Shown: positions 13,298 through 62,829 of the stretch, in pieces
Layout: each line of letters starts with the position of its first letter
Numbering within the stretch: position 1 is the first letter of the stretch
NCBI GenBank assembly: GCA_037200925.1
Contig: JBBCGO010000001.1
Coordinates: forward strand, 447,698 to 511,697
Length of the DNA: 64,000 nucleotides
Source of the DNA: Candidatus Doudnabacteria bacterium
Lineage (GTDB): Bacteria > Patescibacteriota > Doudnabacteria > UBA920 > O2-02-FULL-48-8
Direction of reading: 5' to 3'
Program-made: the position numbers and the translations under genes
The notes under the pieces: model-generated
Database searches by the model: none
The model's input: the letters and a program-made list of their open reading frames with translations, nothing else
Told to the model about the DNA's origin: nothing

Positions 13298-13372
13298 TGG
13301 GGTGCCAGACGAGAATCGAACTCGCGTGACCGCTGCCACAGAGCGGCGTTCTACCATTGAACTACTGGCACC
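13298..13372 (-). tRNA. tRNA-His (anticodon GTG) with encoded G-1 and CCA
   Basis: Hand-folded cloverleaf: 8-bp acceptor including G-1:C73. Anticodon stem CCGCU/AGCGG with loop CUGUGGC. T-loop TTCGATT. 3' CCA encoded. Confidence 0.85.
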
Positions 13373-13450: not shown

Positions 13451-13525
13451 GTCAGCGGCCGAGCGGAATCGGACCCACGTGACAGCTGCCACAGAGCTGC
13501 GTTCTACCATTGAACTACGGGCACC
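13451..13525 (-). pseudogene. Degenerate tRNA-His(GTG)-like copy. The 5' ~47 nt are near-identical to the intact tRNA-His. The 3' half is divergent with a poor T-arm and acceptor and no CCA.
   Basis: Alignment with 13298..13372: 3 substitutions in the 5' 47 nt versus about 9 in the 3' 25 nt. The T-stem pairs only 3/5. Confidence 0.5.
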
Positions 13526-13588
13526 TCGTCTCAGTTTGTAGACACTTCGCGATTTTGCTTCGCAAAATACGCTACGGTCTACACGCTG
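13526..13588 (-). promoter_or_regulatory. Conserved structured tRNA 5'-leader element, copy A (tRNA orientation is the minus strand)
   Basis: About 85-90% identical to copies at 19008..19081 and 38495..38567. Contains a TTTTGC-GAA-GCAAAA hairpin and an outer GYAGAC/GUCURC stem with compensatory changes. Confidence 0.6.
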
Positions 13589-13651
13589 CTCCTCTCAAAA
13601 AATTTGTTCTCGGCCTTCGGCCTGCGACTCAAATTTTTTGTGGTTTAAAAG

Positions 13652-19007: not shown

Positions 19008-19081
19008 TTGAGAGGAGCAGCATGCAGACCGTAGCACTTTTTGCGAAGCAAAAATGCGAAGTGTCTGCCAGTCTGCGACGA
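19008..19081 (+). promoter_or_regulatory. Conserved structured tRNA 5'-leader element, copy B
   Basis: ttgagaggagcagcatgcagaccgtagcactttttgcgaagcaaaaatgcgaagtgtctgc followed by ...ctgcgacga, directly abutting tRNA-Lys. Confidence 0.6.
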
Positions 19082-20982: not shown

Positions 20983-21652
20983 CAGCTTCCTAAATTAGTT
21001 TTAAGATTGCGGATCGCCCCGCTGGCCGTTTCGGTATAGGTTCCGCTGGATCCTACCCCGGCCTTTTTAAATATGGTCAAATTGATCTTGACCAGTTTGA
21101 CGGCTGTGACATTCAGCGGCTGGACCAAAGGATTTTCAACCACTCCGGAATATGTGCCGTCATAATAATAGAAAATCGGATTTGCGCCGTTAGCCACATC
21201 TTTCTGTACCAAATTCACAGTTTCACCGCCAAGATTATAGAGCAAAGGATTTCCGGTAGGCTTGGTGACTCCTTTATACAAAGCACCGGCTTGGAGGAAA
21301 TACCGGATCCGGTTGACGCTGCCTGCCGCATTTGGAGGAAATACCGGATCCGGTTGACGCTGCCTGCCGCATTGGTATAAAAGATCAGCTGTTGAGCTGT
21401 CGCTGATTCCAGCGCGTATCCTCCGGTGTCTGAAGTTGTGGCATCGCGCAATTCCTGGATCAGCGTAAAAGCTACGCGGCGGGCGCTGTCATTATTGGCA
21501 AGCAAACTTCCTTGCAGCGAGCTGTTCACAAGCACAGAGGAAACCAAGGCTACTATCCCGTAAGCGATGATGGAAAAAATTGCAACGGAAATCATCACTT
21601 CTATCAGCGTGAATCCCTTTTCTTGTTCTCTGTTGGATGTTATCTGTTTCAT
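20982..21652 (-). pseudogene. Type IV minor pilin gene (prepilin N-terminus KGFTLIEVMISVAIF), split into ORFs 21215..21652 and 20982..21281 by a 41-bp tandem duplication
   Basis: Deleting one 41-nt unit puts the two ORFs into the same frame (21652-41=21611, same residue mod 3 as 21281). Confidence 0.6.
21291..21372. repeat. Perfect 41-bp tandem direct duplication (2 copies: 21291-21331 and 21332-21372)
   Basis: ttggaggaaataccggatccggttgacgctgcctgccgcat appears twice, head to tail. Confidence 0.95.
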
Positions 21653-27868: not shown

Positions 27869-27875
27869 ATCAGGA

Positions 27876-27909
27876 AATTTCTAAATTACTAAAATTCCAA
27901 GTTCTAAAT
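27876..27909 (-). promoter_or_regulatory. Conserved 34-nt element, 7 nt upstream of the pilC ATG
   Basis: aatttctaaattactaaaattccaagttctaaat (plus-strand reading). About 30/34 identical to 29732..29764 upstream of pilB. Confidence 0.5.
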
Positions 27910-27973: not shown

Positions 27974-29722
27974 TTACTCCCTGCTCACTCTCACTATCTC
28001 CTCTATCGTCGTCTTGCCTTGCAGGCATTTGATGAATCCGTCCTGCCACATCAGGATCATCCCTTCCTCCACGGCCTTTGCCTCCAGCTGGCTGGTCGGC
28101 GAGCGCTTCATGATCAGGTCCTGGACCATAGTGGAGATCTCCATCACTTCATAGATGCCCTTGCGGCCGCGGTAACCCGAATGCCCGCACTTATCGCATC
28201 CTTTTCCGTGAAAAAAAGTCAGTTCCATCAGGCCGGTTATTTTCTCGTCAATGAATTTCTCGCGCTTGAGGATGGCCAGCAGGGCCGGGACGTCATAATC
28301 TTTTTTCAGAGTTTCTTCAAGCTCCGCGTCAATTTTGATCTCTTCCTTGCAGTCGGGGCAGATCTGGCGGGTCAGGCGCTGGCCGACCACGACGTTGACC
28401 GTGGACGCGATCAGGTACGGCTCCACGCCGATATCCAAAAGCCTCGGCAAAGCTCCTGCCGCATTGTTCGTGTGCAGGGTGGATAGCACGATGTGCCCGG
28501 TCAATGCCGCGTGCACGGATTCCTCGGCGGTCTCAGCATCTCTGATTTCCCCGATCATGATGATGTTCGGGTCCTGCCGTAAGAGCGCCCGCAAACCCAT
28601 GGCAAAGGTCAGGCCGATCTTGGGACTGACCTGCGTCTGGTTGATGCCTTCTATGCGGTACTCTATCGGGTCCTCGATGGTGGCAATGTTCACACTCTTA
28701 GTATTCAGAAGCGACAGGATAGAATACAAGGTCGTGGATTTTCCGCTGCCCGTGGGCCCGGTGACCAGCAGAGCGCCATGCGGCTTCTTCACGTTCCTCA
28801 TAATGACCTCGTAATTGCGCGCGATAAATCCGAGTTCCTCCAATGTCATGGCTTTCGTGGACTCGTCGAGCAAGCGCATCACGACCTTCTCGCCGTCAAA
28901 CACGGGGATGGTGGATACGCGCAAAGAGATATTGTAATTCTCCTTCGCAACCTTGAACCGGCCGTCCTGCGGCAAACGGTGCTCGTCTATCTTGAGGTTG
29001 GCAATGACCTTGATGCGGGCGATCAGCGCCGGCTGGATGATCTTCGGCAAGGTCATGACATCATGCAGCACGCCGTCAATCCGATACCTGACCATGACCT
29101 CTTTTTCCTGCGGCTCTATATGAATGTCCGATGCTTTTTCAAATATCGCGTATTCCAGCAGAGTATCCACCACGCGGACCACGGGAATTTCCTCCGCCAT
29201 TTCTTTGAGCTTTTCCGTGACATTCTCCGTGCCGGCCGCGCCTTCTTTTTCCTGCTTGGTGATGATCTTGGCAAACTCCGCCTCAAGACTCGTGTGGTAC
29301 TGCTTCAGCCCGTAGTCCAAAGACGCTTTGCTGATGAGAAAAGGCACGATCTGCAGGTCGGTCGTCTTTTTTATGGAATCCCGGGTCTCCAGATCATCCG
29401 GGTCCGTCATGCCCACGTTCAGCTTGCCTTTCTCGCTGCCGAAAGCGATAACCTTATGCCTGCGAGCTATCGGCTCCGGCACCAAAAGCAGAACTTCTTT
29501 GGGTATCTGGCCCATGTCCGTCAGGTTCTTGTATTCCACATCGAAAAATCCGGCGATGATCATGGCCAGTTTTTCTTCGTCAATGATCTTTTTCTCAACC
29601 AGAAGGTCGTTCAGCTCGCGCCTGCCTGCCACAGCTTCTTTTTCTAAAGTTGTAAAAGCCTCAGCAGTGGTGAGTTTTTGGGCCACCAGGCTCCGCTTCA
29701 ATTGTTCTGTGTCAAAAGCCAT
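27974..29722 (-). CDS. pilB: Type IV pilus assembly ATPase PilB (GspE family)
   Basis: Walker A GPTGSGKSTT. MIGEIRD. C-terminal tetracysteine. Confidence 0.9.
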   Translation of the reverse strand: MAFDTEQLKRSLVAQKLTTAEAFTTLEKEAVAGRRELNDLLVEKKIIDEEKLAMIIAGFFDVEYKNLTDMGQIPKEVLLLVPEPIARRHKVIAFGSEKGKLNVGMTDPDDLETRDSIKKTTDLQIVPFLISKASLDYGLKQYHTSLEAEFAKIITKQEKEGAAGTENVTEKLKEMAEEIPVVRVVDTLLEYAIFEKASDIHIEPQEKEVMVRYRIDGVLHDVMTLPKIIQPALIARIKVIANLKIDEHRLPQDGRFKVAKENYNISLRVSTIPVFDGEKVVMRLLDESTKAMTLEELGFIARNYEVIMRNVKKPHGALLVTGPTGSGKSTTLYSILSLLNTKSVNIATIEDPIEYRIEGINQTQVSPKIGLTFAMGLRALLRQDPNIIMIGEIRDAETAEESVHAALTGHIVLSTLHTNNAAGALPRLLDIGVEPYLIASTVNVVVGQRLTRQICPDCKEEIKIDAELEETLKKDYDVPALLAILKREKFIDEKITGLMELTFFHGKGCDKCGHSGYRGRKGIYEVMEISTMVQDLIMKRSPTSQLEAKAVEEGMILMWQDGFIKCLQGKTTIEEIVRVSRE

Positions 29723-29731
29723 AAGATAAAA

Positions 29732-29764
29732 AATTCTAAATTACTAAAGTCCTAAGTTCTAAAT
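29732..29764 (-). promoter_or_regulatory. Conserved 34-nt element, 9 nt upstream of the pilB ATG
   Basis: aattctaaattactaaagtcctaagttctaaat. See 27876..27909. Confidence 0.5.
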
Positions 29765-29807
29765 AATCTCGCAACCCTGAACTTGGTATCGAAACCCTGA
29801 ACTTGTT

Positions 29808-30110
29808 TCAGGGTCTCTTAATAAAATCGTCATATACATCTTTCCATTCCGGATTATCTTTTTCTATAAGATTTATCTTCCATTGCCGATGCCAATTTTT
29901 GATCTGCCGCTCTCTTTCAAAGGCCTGTTCGATTGTCTCACATGGTTCATAGTAGACCAGTTTGTCAAGATTATATTTTTTCGTGAATCCCTCCACTAGT
30001 TTTTCTTTATGCTGCCAAATTCTTTCCAATCCTATGCCGGTGGCTCCTGTATAAAGAACTGTATTCATCTTGTTGGTTAATATATAAACTCCCGGTTCTT
30101 TTTCTTGCAT
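29808..30110 (-). CDS. GIY-YIG nuclease family protein (YhbQ/UPF0213-like)
   Basis: VYILTN...LYTGATG...R...H; about 100 aa. Confidence 0.8.
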   Translation of the reverse strand: MQEKEPGVYILTNKMNTVLYTGATGIGLERIWQHKEKLVEGFTKKYNLDKLVYYEPCETIEQAFERERQIKNWHRQWKINLIEKDNPEWKDVYDDFIKRP

Positions 30111-30330
30111 GTATCCAAAGATGCTGAAACGAGTTCAGCATTGCGGTATGGGTAATTTCCTATTTGAACCTTGAACCTTGAAGTTTATTTCTGTTGGACT
30201 TTGGACATTGGTCATTTGGTTTTCTTTTAGCCCCTTTTATTGGTATTTTTTATTTCTAAAACTAAAAAATGTGCCATCATTATAGCACATTCAGTCAAAA
30301 AATCAAAAAAATAATTAACCTCTTTAGTAA

Positions 30331-30390
30331 CTCCCCCTTCCTCCGCCCTCTTAACTAGAAGAGGGCGGGGCAGGGTGAGGGGAGTTAAAA
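30331..30390. repeat. Solo nested-palindrome element of the DUF559-flanking repeat family
   Basis: taactcccc...ccgccctctt-aactag-aagagggcgg...gggtgaggggagtta. Confidence 0.6.
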
Positions 30391-36692: not shown

Positions 36693-37550
36693 TGTATTCT
36701 CCTGTTTATAGGTAAGCTTTCGGGATCAGGATTAATTATTCATATGAGACAATCAATCCCTAACCTATAAAACGAACCTGTAAACATGTTTTGATTAATT
36801 TTTTATCCCGATATACGGGAATATTTTGTCCCGATATACGGGAACATGGAACTAAACGCCTGTCCGTCTAACGGGACATTTAAAGAAAACAAAGACCGAC
36901 CATCCAGCACCAGTTTTCGGTTATAATTACTTGGTTTAGACTGCTTCGCTTCGCTCGCAGATTCGAATTTGCGAGGAAGCCGCAAGGCTGACGAAGCAAT
37001 CTATAATTATGTTAATTATTTAAGCCAAAAACTGGGGCTGGAACAGTGCCTTATTTAGGCAATTTTAATTCCATTTGTTAAGACGCACGTTTGCATAGTC
37101 AGTTACAGATAAAGTGTTGATAACACCATATTGCAAATGACTTTGCAAACATCGATGAATTTCGCTGGGGTTAGCCAATATTCGCAAAATAAAACAACCG
37201 CGATCTATTGAACCGTGGCAGTTATAATGCTTATTATTCGGCTGACTTGTAAGAGATTTTCATCGAGTACAAGCATTATGGATTAAAAAAACATTTTTGT
37301 CAAGCAAAAATAATGCTAACTTATCGCATCTGCAAGCAACCGTAGGTTGCGCGGCAGTCTAAATCAATTGTCATTCCGGACCCGATCCGGAATCCAGAAA
37401 TAAAGCTTTATGCTGGATCCTGAAACAAGTTCAGGATGACATATTCGGGATGACATAAAATTGATTGCTTTGTCGTGGACAATTGGCTGACTTCTCGCAA
37501 ATTCAAACGTTTTCTGTTAAAATTGCATTTGAACTAAGCGGGATTTTTTT

Positions 37551-38494: not shown

Positions 38495-38567
38495 TCGTCT
38501 CAGCCGGCAGACGCTTCGCGATTTTGCTTTGCAAAATGCGCTACGGTCTGCATGCTGCTCCTCTCAA
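38495..38567 (-). promoter_or_regulatory. Conserved structured tRNA 5'-leader element, copy C
   Basis: The minus-strand reading ttgagaggagcagcatgcagaccgtagcgcattttgcaaagcaaaatcgcgaagcgtctgccggctgagacga abuts the tRNA-Pro 5' end. Confidence 0.6.
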
Positions 38568-41266: not shown

Positions 41267-41465
41267 AAAATTATTGTAGTCAGCCGATTTATCGGCTATT
41301 AATTAATTATAAAAATGCTATAAACAATTCGCGAGTCCCAAAACCGCATCTGCGAGCGACCGCAATTCCTAAGCCTAGTTTAGGCGGTTGCGTGGCAGTC
41401 TAATCTAAGGATTAGATTGCTTCGTCGCTGCGCTCCTTGCAAATGCGTCATATTCACGTGGAATT

Positions 41466-41762
41466 CTAATCCAAGTCTTCATAAAGATCTTTCCAGTCTT
41501 TGTTAAGACTTTCTATTAATTTTACTTTGTCATTTCGAGACCCTGCTTTGATTTGTTTTTCTCGATTAAGTGCTGACTCTAAATCACTATAAACTTCATA
41601 ATAAATTAATTTGTTGATATTATATCGCTTTGTAAAACCTTCGACCAGTTTTTGTTTATGCTCCCATATCCGTTCTTTCAAACTCTTACCGGTAGAACCG
41701 GTATATAAAACAGTATTTGTATAATTTGTCATTATGTAAACAAACGATAACTTGTCTTGCAT
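41466..41762 (-). CDS. GIY-YIG nuclease family protein (YhbQ-like)
   Basis: VYIMTN...LYTGSTG...R...H. Confidence 0.8.
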   Translation of the reverse strand: MQDKLSFVYIMTNYTNTVLYTGSTGKSLKERIWEHKQKLVEGFTKRYNINKLIYYEVYSDLESALNREKQIKAGSRNDKVKLIESLNKDWKDLYEDLD

Positions 41763-41873
41763 AGATTAGATTGCTTCGGAGCAATGCTCCTCGCAAATTC
41801 ACCTAAATAATTCTGACAGGGATAAGATTTTTCGAACATAAAAGCGCCTTATGCTTTAGGCGCTTCTTTTTCT

Positions 41874-42335
41874 TTATCTTCTTTTGTTTCTTTCTCCCGG
41901 GCTTCCCCTGCCAGCTTCTCTTCTTCCGGCAGCTGCTTGTAGAGGGTTCCCATCACTCCGTTGATGAACTTGCCGCTGCTCTCCCCCCCCGAAAGCCTTG
42001 CCCAGCTCCACCGCCTCATTGATCACCACTTTCGGCGGCACCTCTTTGCTGAACATCAGCTCGTAGATCCCCAGTCTCAGGATGTTCCGGTCAATGACCG
42101 TGATCTGCTCCAGCGGCCACTCCGGGGCCGTTTTGACGATTATCTTGTCAATGTCCTCCAAGTGCTTTTCCACTCCGTTTATCAGCTCAAAAATAAAAGC
42201 GGGATCATCGAGCCCGGGCGCAAACTGTTTGACGTTGAATTCCGTGATCGCCAAAAGCGGCCTTACGCGCTCGTTGAAGTCCCACTCATATAAAGATTGC
42301 ATTGCCACCGTGCGGGATAAATGCCTGTTGGCCAT
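41874..42335 (-). CDS. nusB: Transcription antitermination factor NusB. The 3' end is probably frameshifted at a C8/G8 homopolymer (41983-41990).
   Basis: RHLSRTVAMQSLYEWDF. The alternative frame after the G-run gives the canonical NusB tail GGESSGKFINGVMGTLYKQL. Confidence 0.8.
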   Translation of the reverse strand: MANRHLSRTVAMQSLYEWDFNERVRPLLAITEFNVKQFAPGLDDPAFIFELINGVEKHLEDIDKIIVKTAPEWPLEQITVIDRNILRLGIYELMFSKEVPPKVVINEAVELGKAFGGGEQRQVHQRSDGNPLQAAAGRREAGRGSPGERNKRR

Positions 42336-42630: not shown

Positions 42631-43291
42631 AAAAAATTCTCAAATATCTGTCGGTGAACAGGAGTTTCTGACATTTTGTAAACAAAATTTCAGAATTCAC
42701 CGACAGATAACTGAGAACTTTGGGAAACGGGCGGGGAATGACAGTCGATGTTGACTGACTTACTCATTCCCCTTCTTGCGCGTAACTTTTGGCTTAACCC
42801 ACCAATCCAGCACAAGGCTGGCTATCAAAGCGGGGATGCCGAAGGCCAAAATAACATTGGCTAACTCCTTCATATTGGTGCCTCCAAGTAGTTTTTGAAG
42901 CGGGGCTGGGATCCCGCTTCTTTTGGTGTTTGCAACTACTTCTGATCCTCCGGTAAAAAATCTTCAAACCAGAGATAGATGCGGTCGAGCCAAATGGTCA
43001 TTCGGCGGTAGATGCGCGAAGACGTGAATCTGGGCAGACGAACGACGACGATTGTGATCATGCTCCACTCCGTCAGAAACTAAGTTTCCGGGTTTCCGAA
43101 CGCCGAGTGTACGAGCGCCGCCGGTTCGGGAGTATTCTAACCCTTTTCTCTCTTGCGTTCAAGCAGGAGGAACAGGGTAAAATTACTTTCCGATCCTCTG
43201 GATCCAAATTGATTTGGGTCCAGGGGAAGGGAGCAGGCTGGAAAACGGGTTCAAGCCTGCTGTCTTGGGGTTTGTTTTGGCGGGTTGCATG

Positions 43292-43686: not shown

Positions 43687-43971
43687 TCACCTCTTCACGG
43701 GTTGCGAATCGAGCTCGTTTTGAACCTTGCGGCGGCGGATATTGCAACCGGCGCACGGTTTCGCCCTGTCATCCCCATTCAAGTGCACTAATATCCGGGC
43801 GTTGTCTTGCATCGAGAAACCAGTAGCGTCGTCGAAGGTCCTCACACCACAAAATACCTCAATCTCCGCCAATGTGAGACACTTGCCGCCATAGACCATC
43901 TTCATAAATCCTCCTAAAACTTTCCGTTTTTTCCGTACAACTCCTCTGGATCCAAATCGCTTTGGGTCCAA
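43687..43971 (-). CDS. Hypothetical protein (probable start at MKMVYGG)
   Basis: ORF only. Confidence 0.35.
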   Translation of the reverse strand: MDPKRFGSRGVVRKKRKVLGGFMKMVYGGKCLTLAEIEVFCGVRTFDDATGFSMQDNARILVHLNGDDRAKPCAGCNIRRRKVQNELDSQPVKR

Positions 43972-44059
43972 GGGAATGGGGATGTCTTTCTTGGGAAGAC
44001 ATCCGGTTAAAATTCATGGCTCAAGACCATGCGCAAGCGCTATGCCTGCGGTTTCCTCC

Positions 44060-44666: not shown

Positions 44667-45535
44667 GTGGACCCTCGTGCTTGGGAAACTCTTTTGCGGG
44701 AGCTTGATTGCTTGCCCACAACTCTGAATGCTTAGTGAACTTTACGGGGCAAATAGATATCCGTGTTACAACTTTTAAGTATTCAGAATAGTGGGAGCAA
44801 TTCCTTTGTTTTCACAATTGAATGTACTTAACTGTTATAGGTTCGAGACTGATATTCAGTGATTCTCTCTTAACTTTAGTTAACTACACTCGCATTCTAG
44901 AAACAAATTTATTCAATTTTTTCTTTCGTTTTGTTCTTACATTAAGAAACAGGATTCCGATCCTCTGAACTCCATTCTCCGCGAAATTAATGGCGGATGA
45001 AGTACAAGGGAAGAGAGAACTGTTGGCGGGCAGTTCTTTTGGTGCTCTATTGAGCAACCTAATGTTTATTAATCCGGCCGCCAAGCCGTTTTTTTTTGTG
45101 AACTCCTTTTATTGTTGCGGGCTGCGGATGAGCATCGCGATGGCACAAATGGCCAAGGCCAGCACGATTCCGGTGAGCGCTATGACGTGCGTGCCGTTCT
45201 GTTCCAAGAACAGCCATTGAAACATTCTATCGTTCATTCTGTACTTCTTTCTTGCTGTGACAAGGGACCCATATTACCTTACAAAGATAATGATCACTAC
45301 GTCTGCAAACAATACGATGGCAAATATCACCATGGCACAATTGAGCGAAAGGTTGACGTACCCATCAATTTTAGTCCGATTCAGCTTCATGTCACCTTCT
45401 TGACTTAAACTAGGAAAGAACTCGGGAATTATTTCCCTTCCAAAATCTTCTAGCTTTAGAAAACTTAGGAAGAGGCGAGACGGTTATTGACTGTCTCGCA
45501 AACTTCGCACACACGAACTTCCTCCTGTAAATTAT

Positions 45536-46078: not shown

Positions 46079-46233
46079 ATCACCCTCACTATTTAGCTAG
46101 GAGCCAAAGAACTCGGGAATTATTTCCCTTCCAAAATCTTCTAGCTTTAGAAAACTTAGGAAGAGGCAGGCTTGAAAACGGGTTCAAGCCTGCTGTCTTT
46201 GTTTTGGCGGGATTCCCGATCGATGCACGGGAG

Positions 46234-47740: not shown

Positions 47741-47835
47741 AATAATCGAGGATCGAATTTGCGAGGAGCGTTAGCGACGAAGCAATCTAATCATTGGAAT
47801 AGATTGCCGCGTCGGCCTACGGCCTCCTCGCAAAT
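47741..47835. repeat. About 95-nt nested palindromic element downstream of groEL, member of the gattagattgcttcg/cctcgcaaat repeat family
   Basis: Outer IR cgaatttgcgaggagcg/cgctcctcgcaaat-like. Inner IR gcgacgaagcaatcta/tagattgccgcgtcg. Confidence 0.6.
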
Positions 47836-47894
47836 ACGAAAAAGACTAGGCCTAAACCTAATCTTTTCTATTTTCTACTTACTATTTTCTTCTC

Positions 47895-61874: not shown

Positions 61875-61971
61875 TGTATAGGATTAATTTTGCATAACAA
61901 TTTTAGCAGATGACGCTCATTTTTGTAAATCATATATAGATTGTCATTCCCGCGAAAGCGGGAATCCAGTT

Positions 61972-62259
61972 CTAAAGCAAATTTTGATACAAATCTTGCC
62001 ATTTAGGGTTAAACTTTTCAATCAGTTCTAATTTCCACTTTCGGTTCCATTTCTTCAGTTGTTTTTCTCTTTTGATTGCACTTTCAACATCAGGAGTTTC
62101 TTCATAATAAACTAAAGTATTCACATCGTATTTTTTTGTAAAGCCTTTTACGGATTTTTGTTTATGTTGATAAACTCGTTTAATCAAATCTCTCGTAATT
62201 CCAATGTACAGAGTTCCGTTTCGCTTACTGTCTAAAATATAAACAAAATATGATTTCAT
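61972..62259 (-). CDS. GIY-YIG nuclease family protein (YhbQ-like)
   Basis: YFVYILDSKRNGTLYIGITRDL..R..QH. Confidence 0.8.
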   Translation of the reverse strand: MKSYFVYILDSKRNGTLYIGITRDLIKRVYQHKQKSVKGFTKKYDVNTLVYYEETPDVESAIKREKQLKKWNRKWKLELIEKFNPKWQDLYQNLL

Positions 62260-62301
62260 AGTTCTGGATCCCCGATTAGGTCGGGGATGACAGCTTCGCT
62301 G

Positions 62302-62829
62302 TCAGTAGTCAATGCCCCGCAGTGCGAGGATGCCTTGATAATATGGATGCTTTATCATCTTCATCTCAGTCACCAGATCAGCCATATCGATCAATTTTTT
62401 GAACTGTTTATGCCCGGTCAGGCAGAGGTGAGTTTCTGCAGGTTTGGATCTGATGATCTTGGCAACATCATCAACTGTCAGAAGTTTGGATTCAATTGCT
62501 GAGATGGCCTCATCCAAGATCACCAAGTCATATTTTTTTGATTTGAGGGCTTTAATCGATTCTTTCATGGCGTCTTTGGCCGCTTTAATATGTTCCTGGA
62601 TGGGCTTGCGATCTCCCAGGATGCCGACAAAGCCCCGGCCCATCAATTTCACGTCCACATTCTTAAGCTTGCTCAGAACTTCGCGCTCGCCCGAAGGCCA
62701 GTCGCCTTTCACGAACTGCAAATACAAAACCTTAAAGCCGGTGCCGGCTGCTCGGACCGCAAGTCCGGCAGCAGCAGAAGTTTTTCCTTTGCCGTTGCCG
62801 ATATAAATTATTGTAAGGCCTTTGGTCAT
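62302..62829 (-). CDS. cobO: Cob(I)alamin adenosyltransferase (CobO/BtuR type)
   Basis: IYIGNGKGKTSAAAGLAVRAAGTGFKVLYLQFVKG. Confidence 0.85.
   Translation of the reverse strand: MTKGLTIIYIGNGKGKTSAAAGLAVRAAGTGFKVLYLQFVKGDWPSGEREVLSKLKNVDVKLMGRGFVGILGDRKPIQEHIKAAKDAMKESIKALKSKKYDLVILDEAISAIESKLLTVDDVAKIIRSKPAETHLCLTGHKQFKKLIDMADLVTEMKMIKHPYYQGILALRGIDY

Follow-up and report, generated by a model that had tools for sequence, protein, structure and literature searches.

Ssn nucleases are single-domain GIY-YIG proteins of about 94 amino acids (aa; CDD cd10448) that were described, together with the NTS or SRM (Ssn-related motif) hairpin repeats beside their genes, by Chenal et al. (2025, Nat Commun 16:2388; PMC11893778). 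The enzymes bind the tagged hairpin repeat, the tag being a short orientation sequence before the hairpin, solely as single-stranded DNA (ssDNA), which they cleave a few nucleotides (nt) 5' of the hairpin; they are inactive on double-stranded DNA (dsDNA) and RNA, and in vitro SsnA showed neither binding nor cleavage of RNA (PMC11893778). The Neisseria repeat NTS reads CGTCATTCCCGCGMAVGCGGGAATCYRG, the SRM has been published as a degenerate pattern, and 71% of the homologs have an SRM nearby, 42% on both sides (PMC11893778). Here we analyse a stretch of 64,000 nt from a metagenome-assembled genome of Candidatus Doudnabacteria (Patescibacteria; contig JBBCGO010000001.1 of assembly GCA_037200925.1; GC content 46%), hereafter called the window, in which three genes within 32 kb very probably encode nucleases of the Ssn family, cd10448 clade, each gene lying between inverted copies of an SRM class of its own. 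The kind of system itself is known, and the window adds three new nuclease/hairpin pairs within this already described family.

With the Ssn/SsnA system of Neisseria meningitidis the window shares the small single-domain protein (44-59% identity between the window copies and the Neisseria ortholog, the Tyr, Tyr and Glu residues being kept), tagged hairpin repeats on both flanks of the gene, further copies of these repeats in nearby intergenic DNA and, at one flank of copy 3, a hairpin that equals the NTS consensus save for its first base. It differs in that three divergent paralogs, each with its own hairpin class, reside together in one genome, and in that CGCA(A)T or CGAAT tags and the longer layout TGCGAGG...GCAATCTAATC, both outside the published pattern, characterise two of these classes. 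Furthermore, the tags in the window point outward whereas those at the N. gonorrhoeae locus point inward, and presence/absence polymorphism and unit boundaries are seen in Doudnabacteria, whereas mobility was hypothesised in PMC11893778, where an insertion-sequence-like (IS-like) nature of NTS-ssnA-NTS was raised and left untested. A term search of that paper found mention of neither within-genome paralogs nor Patescibacteria.

Three Ssn-type nuclease genes

The three ORFs (open reading frames) listed in a preliminary description of this DNA exist intact and match Pfam PF01541:

29808..30110, minus strand: ssn copy 1, encoding a 100-aa single-domain GIY-YIG protein (Ssn-type), PF01541 E 5e-14
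41466..41762, minus strand: ssn copy 2, encoding a 98-aa Ssn-type GIY-YIG protein, PF01541 E 2e-14
61972..62259, minus strand: ssn copy 3, encoding a 95-aa Ssn-type GIY-YIG protein, PF01541 E 1e-19

PF01541 spans residues ~4-80 of each protein, that is essentially the full length, and no other domain was found in any of them. With 51-59% pairwise identity the paralogs are old and not recent copies of each other, and tblastn revealed no fourth ssn copy in the 64-kb window. Copy 3 and the PilB-like protein of the window recur with identical sequences in GCA_037975565.1 (Candidatus Doudnabacteria).

A single N. gonorrhoeae homolog (locus L125, 1501-1770; L-numbers here and below label loci of relatives' genomes compared with the window), found on two N. 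gonorrhoeae chromosomes that PLSDB lists among its plasmids, served as proxy for N. meningitidis SsnA (CAX49033.1). Copy 1 is 48% identical to this protein (E 4e-32), copy 2 44% (E 2e-28) and copy 3 59% (E 5e-42), with a coverage of 90-95% for all three; the published family criterion is a BLASTP match to CAX49033.1 with E<1e-10 and at least 75% coverage, or cd10448 as the top CDD match (PMC11893778). The residue numbering of the N. gonorrhoeae ortholog reproduces Y6, Y17 and E64 of PMC11893778, and the motifs VYI(L/M), LY(T/I)G and RE(K/R)Q, which align with this Tyr, Tyr and Glu, are kept in all three window proteins; in copy 1 the catalytic Tyr/Tyr/Arg/Glu are conserved. A protein search returned more than 7,000 homologs at E<1e-10, with no Neisseria protein among the top 120, and no homolog was present in a phage collection. 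As regards the reference gene itself (NZ_CP119142.1, 1880219-1883488; chromosomes of 2.17 Mb), no in-frame ATG is found upstream of the conserved VYIL, and the N. gonorrhoeae ortholog may be a pseudogene or use another start codon.

The label YhbQ-like, which the preliminary description had given to the three genes, is imprecise. When a profile built from the three proteins was searched against PDB sequences, the matches to UPF0213 and UvrC were all weak, and no NCBIfam model reached its cut-off. The UPF0213 structures 1zg2 and 1ywl scored E 0.003 (20.8 bits) and E 0.31, respectively, as against E 2e-28 to 5e-42 for the SsnA ortholog; with a similarity this weak the label does not fit, and UPF0213/YhbQ membership was rejected. 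What the window proteins share with UPF0213/YhbQ and prokaryotic Slx1-like proteins is a similar size and the minimal GIY-YIG fold. We know of no described association of UPF0213 with hairpin repeats. Ssn (cd10448) is treated as a family apart from UPF0213 in PMC11893778. Membership among the GIY-YIG homing endonucleases was also rejected: the group I intron endonuclease model TIGR01453 (NCBIfam) reached 19-20 bits against a cut-off of 56, over ~35 residues only, and the three proteins end right after the catalytic domain, with no C-terminal DNA-binding domain. Homing endonucleases of the I-TevI type resemble the window genes in their catalytic GIY-YIG core, their selfish-gene flavour and their presence/absence polymorphism but are larger than 200 aa, possess linker and DNA-binding domains and cut dsDNA at intron-less alleles.

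Tagged hairpins on both flanks of each gene

The three cassettes follow a common plan, with two inverted tagged hairpins per gene whose tags face outward; the stop codon falls within the 3' hairpin or next to it. The tag is GTCAT, or CGCA(A)T in Doudnabacteria. The elements around the genes are (z denotes the score of the ssDNA fold):

62264..62293, minus strand: 5' SRM of copy 3, TGTCATCCCCGACCTAATCGGGGATCCAG; matches the published SRM pattern; z -4.8
61941..61969, plus strand: 3' SRM of copy 3, TGTCATTCCCGCGAAAGCGGGAATCCAG; NTS consensus save for the first base; z -5.2
62289..62305, no strand: extra hairpin TGACAGC-GAA-GCTGTCA, overlapping the stop codon of the cobO-like gene and the GTC tag of the copy-3 5' SRM
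30279..30306, minus strand: promoter-like site upstream of copy 1, TTGATT-16-TGnTATAAT; consensus match only
30116..30146, minus strand: 5' SRM of copy 1, CGCA-ATGCTGAA-CTCGT-TTCAGCAT-CT, tag GCA not GTC; 8-bp hairpin, z -4.0
29790..29815, plus strand: 3' SRM of copy 1, ACCCTGAA-CTTGT-TTCAGGGT; inverted relative to the 5' SRM; z -4.1
29767..29789, plus strand: partial duplicate of the copy-1 3' SRM with outward GCA tag, GCA-ACCCTGAACTTG; outer end of the copy-1 cassette
41762..41803, minus strand: 5' SRM of copy 2, TGCGAGG class, GA-ATTTGCGAGGAG-inner hairpin-CGAAGCAATCTAATCT; abuts the ATG; z -2.3
41445..41468, plus strand: degenerate GTCAT mini-hairpin beside the copy-2 stop codon; weak fold, z -0.3; absent from L091
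41408..41449, minus strand: extra solo SRM of the 5' type; second member of the direct repeat at copy 2
41343..41405, plus strand: ancestral 3' SRM of the copy-2 cassette, CGCATCTGCGAGCGACCGC...GCGGTTGCGTGGCAGTCTAATC; fold -10.6 kcal/mol

Read in gene orientation, copy 3 has GTCAT-CCCCGA-cctaa-TCGGGG-ATCCAG upstream, followed by 4 nt and the ATG, and downstream TAG, 2 nt and CTGGAT-TCCCGC-tttc-GCGGGA-ATGAC, so that each flank is an 8-bp hairpin with a GTCAT tag, the two being mutually inverted with their tags outward. The published SRM pattern, HGTCWYN(0-2)YYVSBRHN(0-5)WNVSBRGN(0-2)RNCYNB, matches both flanks in inverted orientation (61942-61969 on the plus and 62264-62292 on the minus strand) and gives one further, doubtful match, with 0.16 matches expected per dinucleotide-shuffled window; 61942-61969 agrees with the NTS consensus at all bases but the first. 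A looser scan (any GTC plus a 7-bp stem, at most one mismatch, long loop) produced 148 matches and was uninformative, and the criteria were then tightened. The repeat strings noted earlier at the gene flanks were all found in the sequence, around copy 3 as GTCATTCCCGCGAAAGCGGGAATCCAG at 61943-61969, TCCCCGATTAGGTCGGGGA at 62269-62287 and GACAGCTTCGCTGTC at 62289-62303. The extra hairpin 62289..62305 shows a compensatory change in a relative (GACAAC...GTTGTC in L087).

Downstream of copy 1, in gene orientation, ACCCTGAA-acaag-TTCAGGGT is followed by the partial duplicate, which ends in GGGT-TGCG, and the stop codon TGA (29808-29810) lies inside the stem of the 3' SRM. The unit AACCCTGAACTT is present at 29773 and 29793. 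The hairpin CCTGAACTTGTTTCAGG and its inverted copy do exist as originally described, although at 29796-29812 and 37419-37435 and not at 29793-29809 and 37407-37423.

The direct repeats reported around copy 2 (GATTAGATTGCTTCG at 41410 and 41764, CTCCT[CT]GCAAAT at 41433 and 41787) are real: an independent repeat search returned them as family D19, 35 nt long and 83% identical (41410-41444 and 41764-41798). They represent the 5' hairpin and an extra solo hairpin inserted after the stop codon and not a target-site duplication, which was rejected upon comparison with L091. Downstream of copy 2 the order is the degenerate GTCAT mini-hairpin, the extra solo upstream-type element and the inverted CGCATCTGCGAGCG...GGCAGTCTAATC. 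The extra solo SRM lies in a 60-nt segment (41406-41465) between two copies of CTAATC (41400-05 and 41466-71), and this segment is lacking in L091. The 5' SRM is conserved in L091 and L037, and 41343..41405 is orthologous to the stop-overlapping 3' SRM of these two loci, with homology ending at CTCGCAGATGCG.

The flank hairpins of copies 1 and 2 thus have the same architecture with variant tags; they fail the literal SRM pattern but have homologous counterparts with GTCAT tags in other phyla. Folded as ssDNA, the short hairpins make stems of 8 bp, with z values of -2.8 to -5.2. By eye, no T-run follows any SRM hairpin in the window, and no SRM hairpin was called in a terminator scan of the copy-1 locus, the sole region scanned. 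An Rfam scan of the whole window at gathering thresholds and permissive scans of three hairpin regions gave only tRNAs and chance-level matches, leaving the hairpins without an Rfam family. Among the weak matches was the Francisella small RNA FtrB at 61910-61986 (26 bits, E 0.03, gathering score 66), which overlaps the NTS-like hairpin; the FtrB family may contain an SRM-like hairpin.

The flank plan across phyla and the pairing of nuclease and hairpin

A scan that took one genome per species gave over 584 relatives, and the flanks were inspected for the best 80, which are 50-86% identical to the window Ssn proteins. Their hosts belong to Patescibacteria, Omnitrophota, Chloroflexota, Planctomycetota, cyanobacteria and Melainabacteria, several proteobacterial classes and Legionella. 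The same flank plan recurs nearly everywhere among these flanks. When a GTC tag followed by a 7-bp stem was counted within 60 nt of the ORF at the 78 usable loci, the upstream hairpin was in forward orientation at 39 and in reverse at 9, and the downstream hairpin in reverse at 31 and forward at 17; both flanks were canonical at 20 of the 78 loci and both reversed at 3. Shuffled flanks gave about 1.7 loci per single-flank category.

The hairpin class tracks the protein. Loci whose protein is nearest copy 3 have NTS-like stems, those nearest copy 2 have the TGCGAGG class only, and those nearest copy 1 have CTGAA, CTGAGG or NTS-like stems. The tags of the CTGAA and TGCGAGG classes are CGCA(A)T or CGAAT in Doudnabacteria, as against GTCAT in other phyla. 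This pattern fits the co-evolving nuclease/hairpin pairs of PMC11893778, and the window would therefore hold three different pairs.

Several points weigh against reading the three loci as Ssn nucleases with their cognate hairpins. The identity comparison rests on the N. gonorrhoeae proxy, which seems to be without an in-frame ATG. Most SRM-like elements in the window, namely those with GCA or GAA tags and those of the TGCGAGG class, fail the published SRM pattern. Several long TGCGAGG-class copies fold no better than shuffles (z about 0), and for this class the conserved sequence blocks may therefore matter more than pairing. At the N. gonorrhoeae ssnA gene, the single homolog per chromosome, flanked by NTS, the tags of the closest NTS copies point towards the gene, and the outward geometry is therefore not universal. 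Finally, ssDNA specificity and cut position are carried over by analogy from four Neisseria and Wolbachia enzymes.

Gain, loss and inheritance of the cassettes

Insertion polymorphism among relatives, which the preliminary description had asked to be checked, is apparent for copies 1 and 2, for both of which clean empty sites exist, and not for copy 3, which stays at one site.

Copy 1 lies in the leader of pilB. The gtgytataat... leader of its promoter-like site is also present in the pilB leaders of relatives (L089, L132), which places the cassette between promoter and pilB. In L132-134 (PilB 82% identical) the leader gtgttataat...aaaa runs straight to the pilB ATG without a cassette, and in L129-131 (PilB 85% identical) it is likewise devoid of cargo. 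In other relatives the same slot holds a 23S_rRNA_IVP gene (L089), a DUF559 gene (L088) or a small membrane ORF with a gene-less SRM doublet (L090). The nearest relatives of copy 1, L006 (86% identical) and L007 (77%), are found in two further contexts. In a three-way alignment of copy 1, L006 and L007, homology extends from CGCAATGCTGAA to CAGGrTTGCG, that is between two inverted tags; it begins at the 5' SRM 30116..30146 and ends in the partial duplicate 29767..29789. The same alignment revealed no consistent target-site duplication at the cassette ends. Copy 1 is an insertion polymorphism among relatives.

For copy 2, L091 (NusB 91% identical) has the order NusB-SRM-ssn-SRM-LTD, with the stop codon inside the 3' element and an Ssn protein 74% identical to copy 2. 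In L092, L093 and L097 (NusB 79-89% identical) the NusB-LTD spacers measure roughly 45-80 nt and contain neither hairpin nor gene; these are clean empty sites. In L094 a DUF559 gene occupies the slot. A cassette 77% identical to copy 2 resides in another context in L037, with homology from GCATTTGCGAGG to CTCGCAGATGCG. Copy 2, too, is an insertion polymorphism among relatives. Related cassettes of 77-86% aa identity thus occur in different contexts with homology ending at the hairpin tags, and the comparison shows the SRM-ssn-SRM block as a discrete unit that is gained or lost as a whole among Doudnabacteria.

Copy 3 behaves differently. In three Doudnabacteria genomes (the window, L086 and L087) it is syntenic, the gene order being ribonucleotide reductase, CobO-like, ssn, DUF4430 and DUF6580, and its orthologs in L086 and L087 are 75-77% identical, a divergence about that of the neighbours (CobO-like protein 78-79%). 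The stems and tags of both copy-3 hairpins are identical in the three genomes, while loops, spacers and everything beyond ATGAC differ, which is the pattern of purifying selection acting on noncoding DNA. The gene just past the 3' hairpin differs, being a CYTH-domain gene in L086 and a 171-aa ORF in L087 and lacking in the window. Proteins 77-78% identical to copy 3 also have their genes in unrelated contexts, in one case outside the Patescibacteria, and these cassettes keep the distinct left (ATCCCCG) and right (ATTCCCGC) hairpins. L126 has the same left-end type and the invariant stem and tag of the 3' SRM. Judged by synteny, copy 3 is ancient at its site and stably inherited. The outcome named beforehand as contrary to mobility, ancient and syntenic paralogs with unrelated terminators as flanks, is thus found in one half, the synteny of copy 3; the flanks are tagged hairpins without T-runs and not unrelated terminators. 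The suggested role in mobility or as recombination hotspots is supported in part, by the polymorphic copies 1 and 2 and by homology that stops at the tags, and not by copy 3.

Further observations were made at these loci. L126 and L127 encode the same Ssn protein and their contigs diverge right after the 3' hairpin, L127 having a 5'-truncated second ssn-like fragment (2817-2996) that abuts the hairpin. The NusB ORF of the window (41849-42335, minus strand) has an apparent frameshift at a G run around 41985; residues 1-117 match relatives, and the normal NusB C-terminus (GESSGKFINGV..LYKQLPEE) continues in an overlapping 56-aa ORF (41849..42019). This could be an assembly error or real. In L093 a distant GIY-YIG gene (1254-1580; 108 aa, 28-37% identical to the window copies) lies between rpmF and nusB, bracketed by GATCGCGA repeats. 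The DUF559 (Vsr-like endonuclease) genes in ssn slots of relatives (L088 2560-3400, L094 3060-3500) have palindromes of their own, CCCTCTCC..GGAGAGGG or CCCCTCCTCGTGAGGAGGGG, and a similar gene-less palindrome is present in the window at 30330-30390, downstream of the gene for a 527-aa protein; this looks like a second type of nuclease-plus-hairpin cassette. Genes for 23S_rRNA_IVP (four-helix-bundle) proteins take the place of ssn as cargo of the pilB leader in relatives and also occur there between pilB and pilC (L089 2267-2674, L088 5283-5645, L007 2641-2985); they are bordered by low-complexity repeats rich in AAGTTCAA/TTGAACTT, which the window keeps (family D18) at 27875-27909 and 29730-29764, upstream of pilB and pilC. 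An ssn homolog stands beside a PilB/GspE ATPase gene in the metagenome-assembled genomes of a Saccharibacteria member and of another member of the Patescibacteria (L035 1345-3112, L064 44-1773), as it does in the window (27974-30110). Either coincidence or a bias towards pilus-operon leaders could account for this arrangement, which is of interest since Ssn affects transformation in Neisseria.

Gene-less hairpins in the window

About 18 SRM-like elements are distributed over five intergenic regions of the window. Those that are not next to an ssn gene comprise:

36934..37003: two abutting TGCGAGG-class SRMs, tag to tag (36934-36964, minus strand; 36961-37003, plus strand)
37323..37365, plus strand: solo SRM of the 3' type, CGCATCTGCAAGCAACC..GGTTGCGCGGCAGTCTAAATC; z -3.0
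37368..37442, no strand: gene-less SRM doublet with outward tags like the gene flanks, GTCATTCCGG..CCGGAATCCAG, 15 nt, CTGGATCCTGAA..TTCAGGATGAC
37441..37505, minus strand: partial GTCATCCCGA fragment (37441-37456) and solo TGCGAG-class SRM (37458-37505), upstream of tRNA-Gly
47750..47840, no strand: two TGCGAGG-class SRMs without a gene, tags outward, 7 nt apart

A tblastn search of the hairpin-rich spacer of 860 nt at 36.7-37.55 kb for a degraded ssn gene came back negative, and the ORFs there are all short.

Other repeats of the window

An element of ~70 nt with a CTTCGC..GCGAAG palindrome lies beside tRNA-His, tRNA-Pro and tRNA-Lys (13526-13598 and 38495-38567, 88% identical; a similar one at 19024-19079) and may be a shared tRNA promoter or leader. 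The tRNA-His(GTG) genes are in tandem (13298-13371 and 13453-13525, 153 nt apart), with Rfam scores of 63.9 bits versus 38.5 bits for the second. Unrelated to SRMs are a perfect 62-nt repeat (45415-45476 and 46106-46167, 691 nt apart), a palindrome family GGATCCAAAT..GGGTCCA with an adjacent GCAGGCT..AGCCTGC hairpin (43194-43266, 43942-43979, 46166-46199) and a perfect 41-nt tandem duplication (21291-21372).

Possible mechanism and alternative explanations

By homology with N. meningitidis SsnA (PMC11893778), each enzyme would bind its own hairpin only in ssDNA, recognise the orientation by the tag and cleave a few nt on its 5' side, the substrate being ssDNA that arises from DNA uptake, replication or repair. 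As the tags point outward on opposite strands, the predicted cuts would fall just outside the unit on each strand. In a Patescibacteria cell with DNA uptake via type IV pili the enzymes would trim incoming hairpin-bearing ssDNA, as in Neisseria, and hairpin cutting would limit the recombination of incoming ssDNA with SRMs. Breaks at hairpins may occasionally seed recombination that spreads or replaces cassettes and hairpins.

Two alternatives deny the hairpins a primary role as DNA sites. Stand-alone small GIY-YIG proteins have historically been classed as prokaryotic Slx1-like repair enzymes (PMC1564403), and the hairpins are intergenic, so one might see in the three loci ordinary YhbQ/UPF0213- or Slx1-like repair nucleases next to unrelated terminators or REP-like stabilisers of mRNA. 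This explanation is largely refuted, and we give it hardly any credence: besides the profile scores for UPF0213 and SsnA, it is contradicted by orientation tags that face outward on opposite strands, by the lack of T-runs and, at the one locus scanned, of a terminator call, by tagged hairpins flanking homologs across phyla far above shuffles, and by the position of the 5' hairpin between promoter-like site and ATG, where a terminator would block expression. Alternatively, the hairpins might act mainly as RNA, as cis-regulatory or stabilising elements in the ssn mRNA and neighbouring transcripts, with DNA recognition being secondary. Both hairpins are probably co-transcribed with the gene, at copy 1 also with the pilB operon, and compensatory changes keep the pairing, which are indifferent as to RNA or ssDNA. 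On the other hand, the two flanks are inverted, and the mRNA therefore carries the sense tagged motif only once whereas each DNA strand has one forward copy; solo copies are numerous and stand in either orientation to the genes beside them, no Rfam family matches, and the inertness of SsnA towards RNA in vitro (PMC11893778) also speaks against it. We consider such a primarily RNA-level function improbable.

The remaining alternative, that SRM-ssn-SRM is an autonomous selfish element, deserves more weight. Here the nuclease would nick outside each tagged hairpin on opposite strands, the unit would be copied or moved, and gene-less doublets would be non-autonomous REPIN-like derivatives or homing targets. 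The IS-like hypothesis had already been raised in PMC11893778, and many features of the cassettes are in its favour: the unit boundaries coincide with inverted tags, CGCAAT...ATTGCG for the copy-1 type and CGCATyTGCGAG for the copy-2 type, in three contexts each; relatives have clean empty sites; gene-less doublets have the same geometry; the extra solo SRM is bounded by a 6-nt duplication; distinct ends (ATCCCCG versus ATTCCCGC) are kept across unrelated genomes; and the truncated second ssn abuts the 3' SRM in L127. However, GIY-YIG enzymes act by hydrolysis and are not known to carry out strand transfer, the window contains no near-identical copies (51-59% aa identity), copy 3 occupies one site across three genomes, and no consistent target-site duplication is seen. 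Moreover, the same slots take unrelated cargo (23S_rRNA_IVP and DUF559 genes), and this acceptance of unrelated small genes points to host recombination hotspots. Measured against a transposon, terminal inverted tagged hairpins and empty sites are present, and near-identical copies, a consistent target-site duplication and known transposase chemistry are absent. On balance we regard autonomy as possible but somewhat doubtful.

Known hairpin-associated elements lend themselves to comparison. The REP/REPIN system with its RAYT (TnpA_REP) shares with the cassettes a small nuclease gene between inverted copies of the recognised hairpin repeat, a short conserved tag beside the hairpin (GTAG for RAYT, GTCAT or GCA in the window), intergenic gene-less inverted doublets and the vertical inheritance of some copies. 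It differs in enzyme chemistry, RAYT being an HUH/Y1 protein with a covalent intermediate and Ssn a hydrolytic GIY-YIG protein of unrelated fold without known strand-transfer activity, and RAYTs are usually single-copy per REP family. IS200/IS605 elements have ssDNA hairpins near their ends, differing left and right hairpins, and a compact layout with one small gene, as do the cassettes, but their TnpA is a Y1 HUH transposase with peel-and-paste transposition and defined target tetranucleotides, whereas the window cassettes have neither identical multi-copy elements nor a defined target site. One may tentatively picture the cassettes as hairpin-ended mobile elements driven by a 95-aa hydrolytic GIY-YIG ssDNA nuclease, with distinct ends, REPIN-like doublets and mutually insulated specificities (GTCAT versus CGCA) that reside together in a ~1-Mb Patescibacteria genome and spread into the leaders of operons, for example that of the type IV pilus gene pilB, a picture which we would not put on a par with that of Ssn nucleases paired with their own SRMs.

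Significance

Three nuclease/hairpin pairs are added to the Ssn family, and each new specificity is a candidate tool because sequence-specific ssDNA cutters are wanted. Beyond what was reported in PMC11893778, three specificities are found together in one small genome, with hairpin classes and tags outside the published pattern. This pattern misses whole classes, namely hairpins with CGCA/CGAAT tags and those of the TGCGAGG...GCAATCTAATC architecture, so that the published proportion of Ssn genes with SRM flanks is probably too low. Empty sites, cassette homology that stops at the tags and the retention of distinct ends provide comparative evidence for NTS-ssnA-NTS units as mobile-like entities. 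Patescibacteria are thought to depend on DNA uptake, and copy 1 lies in the pilB operon leader, so that the proposed connection of Ssn with transformation becomes testable outside Neisseria.

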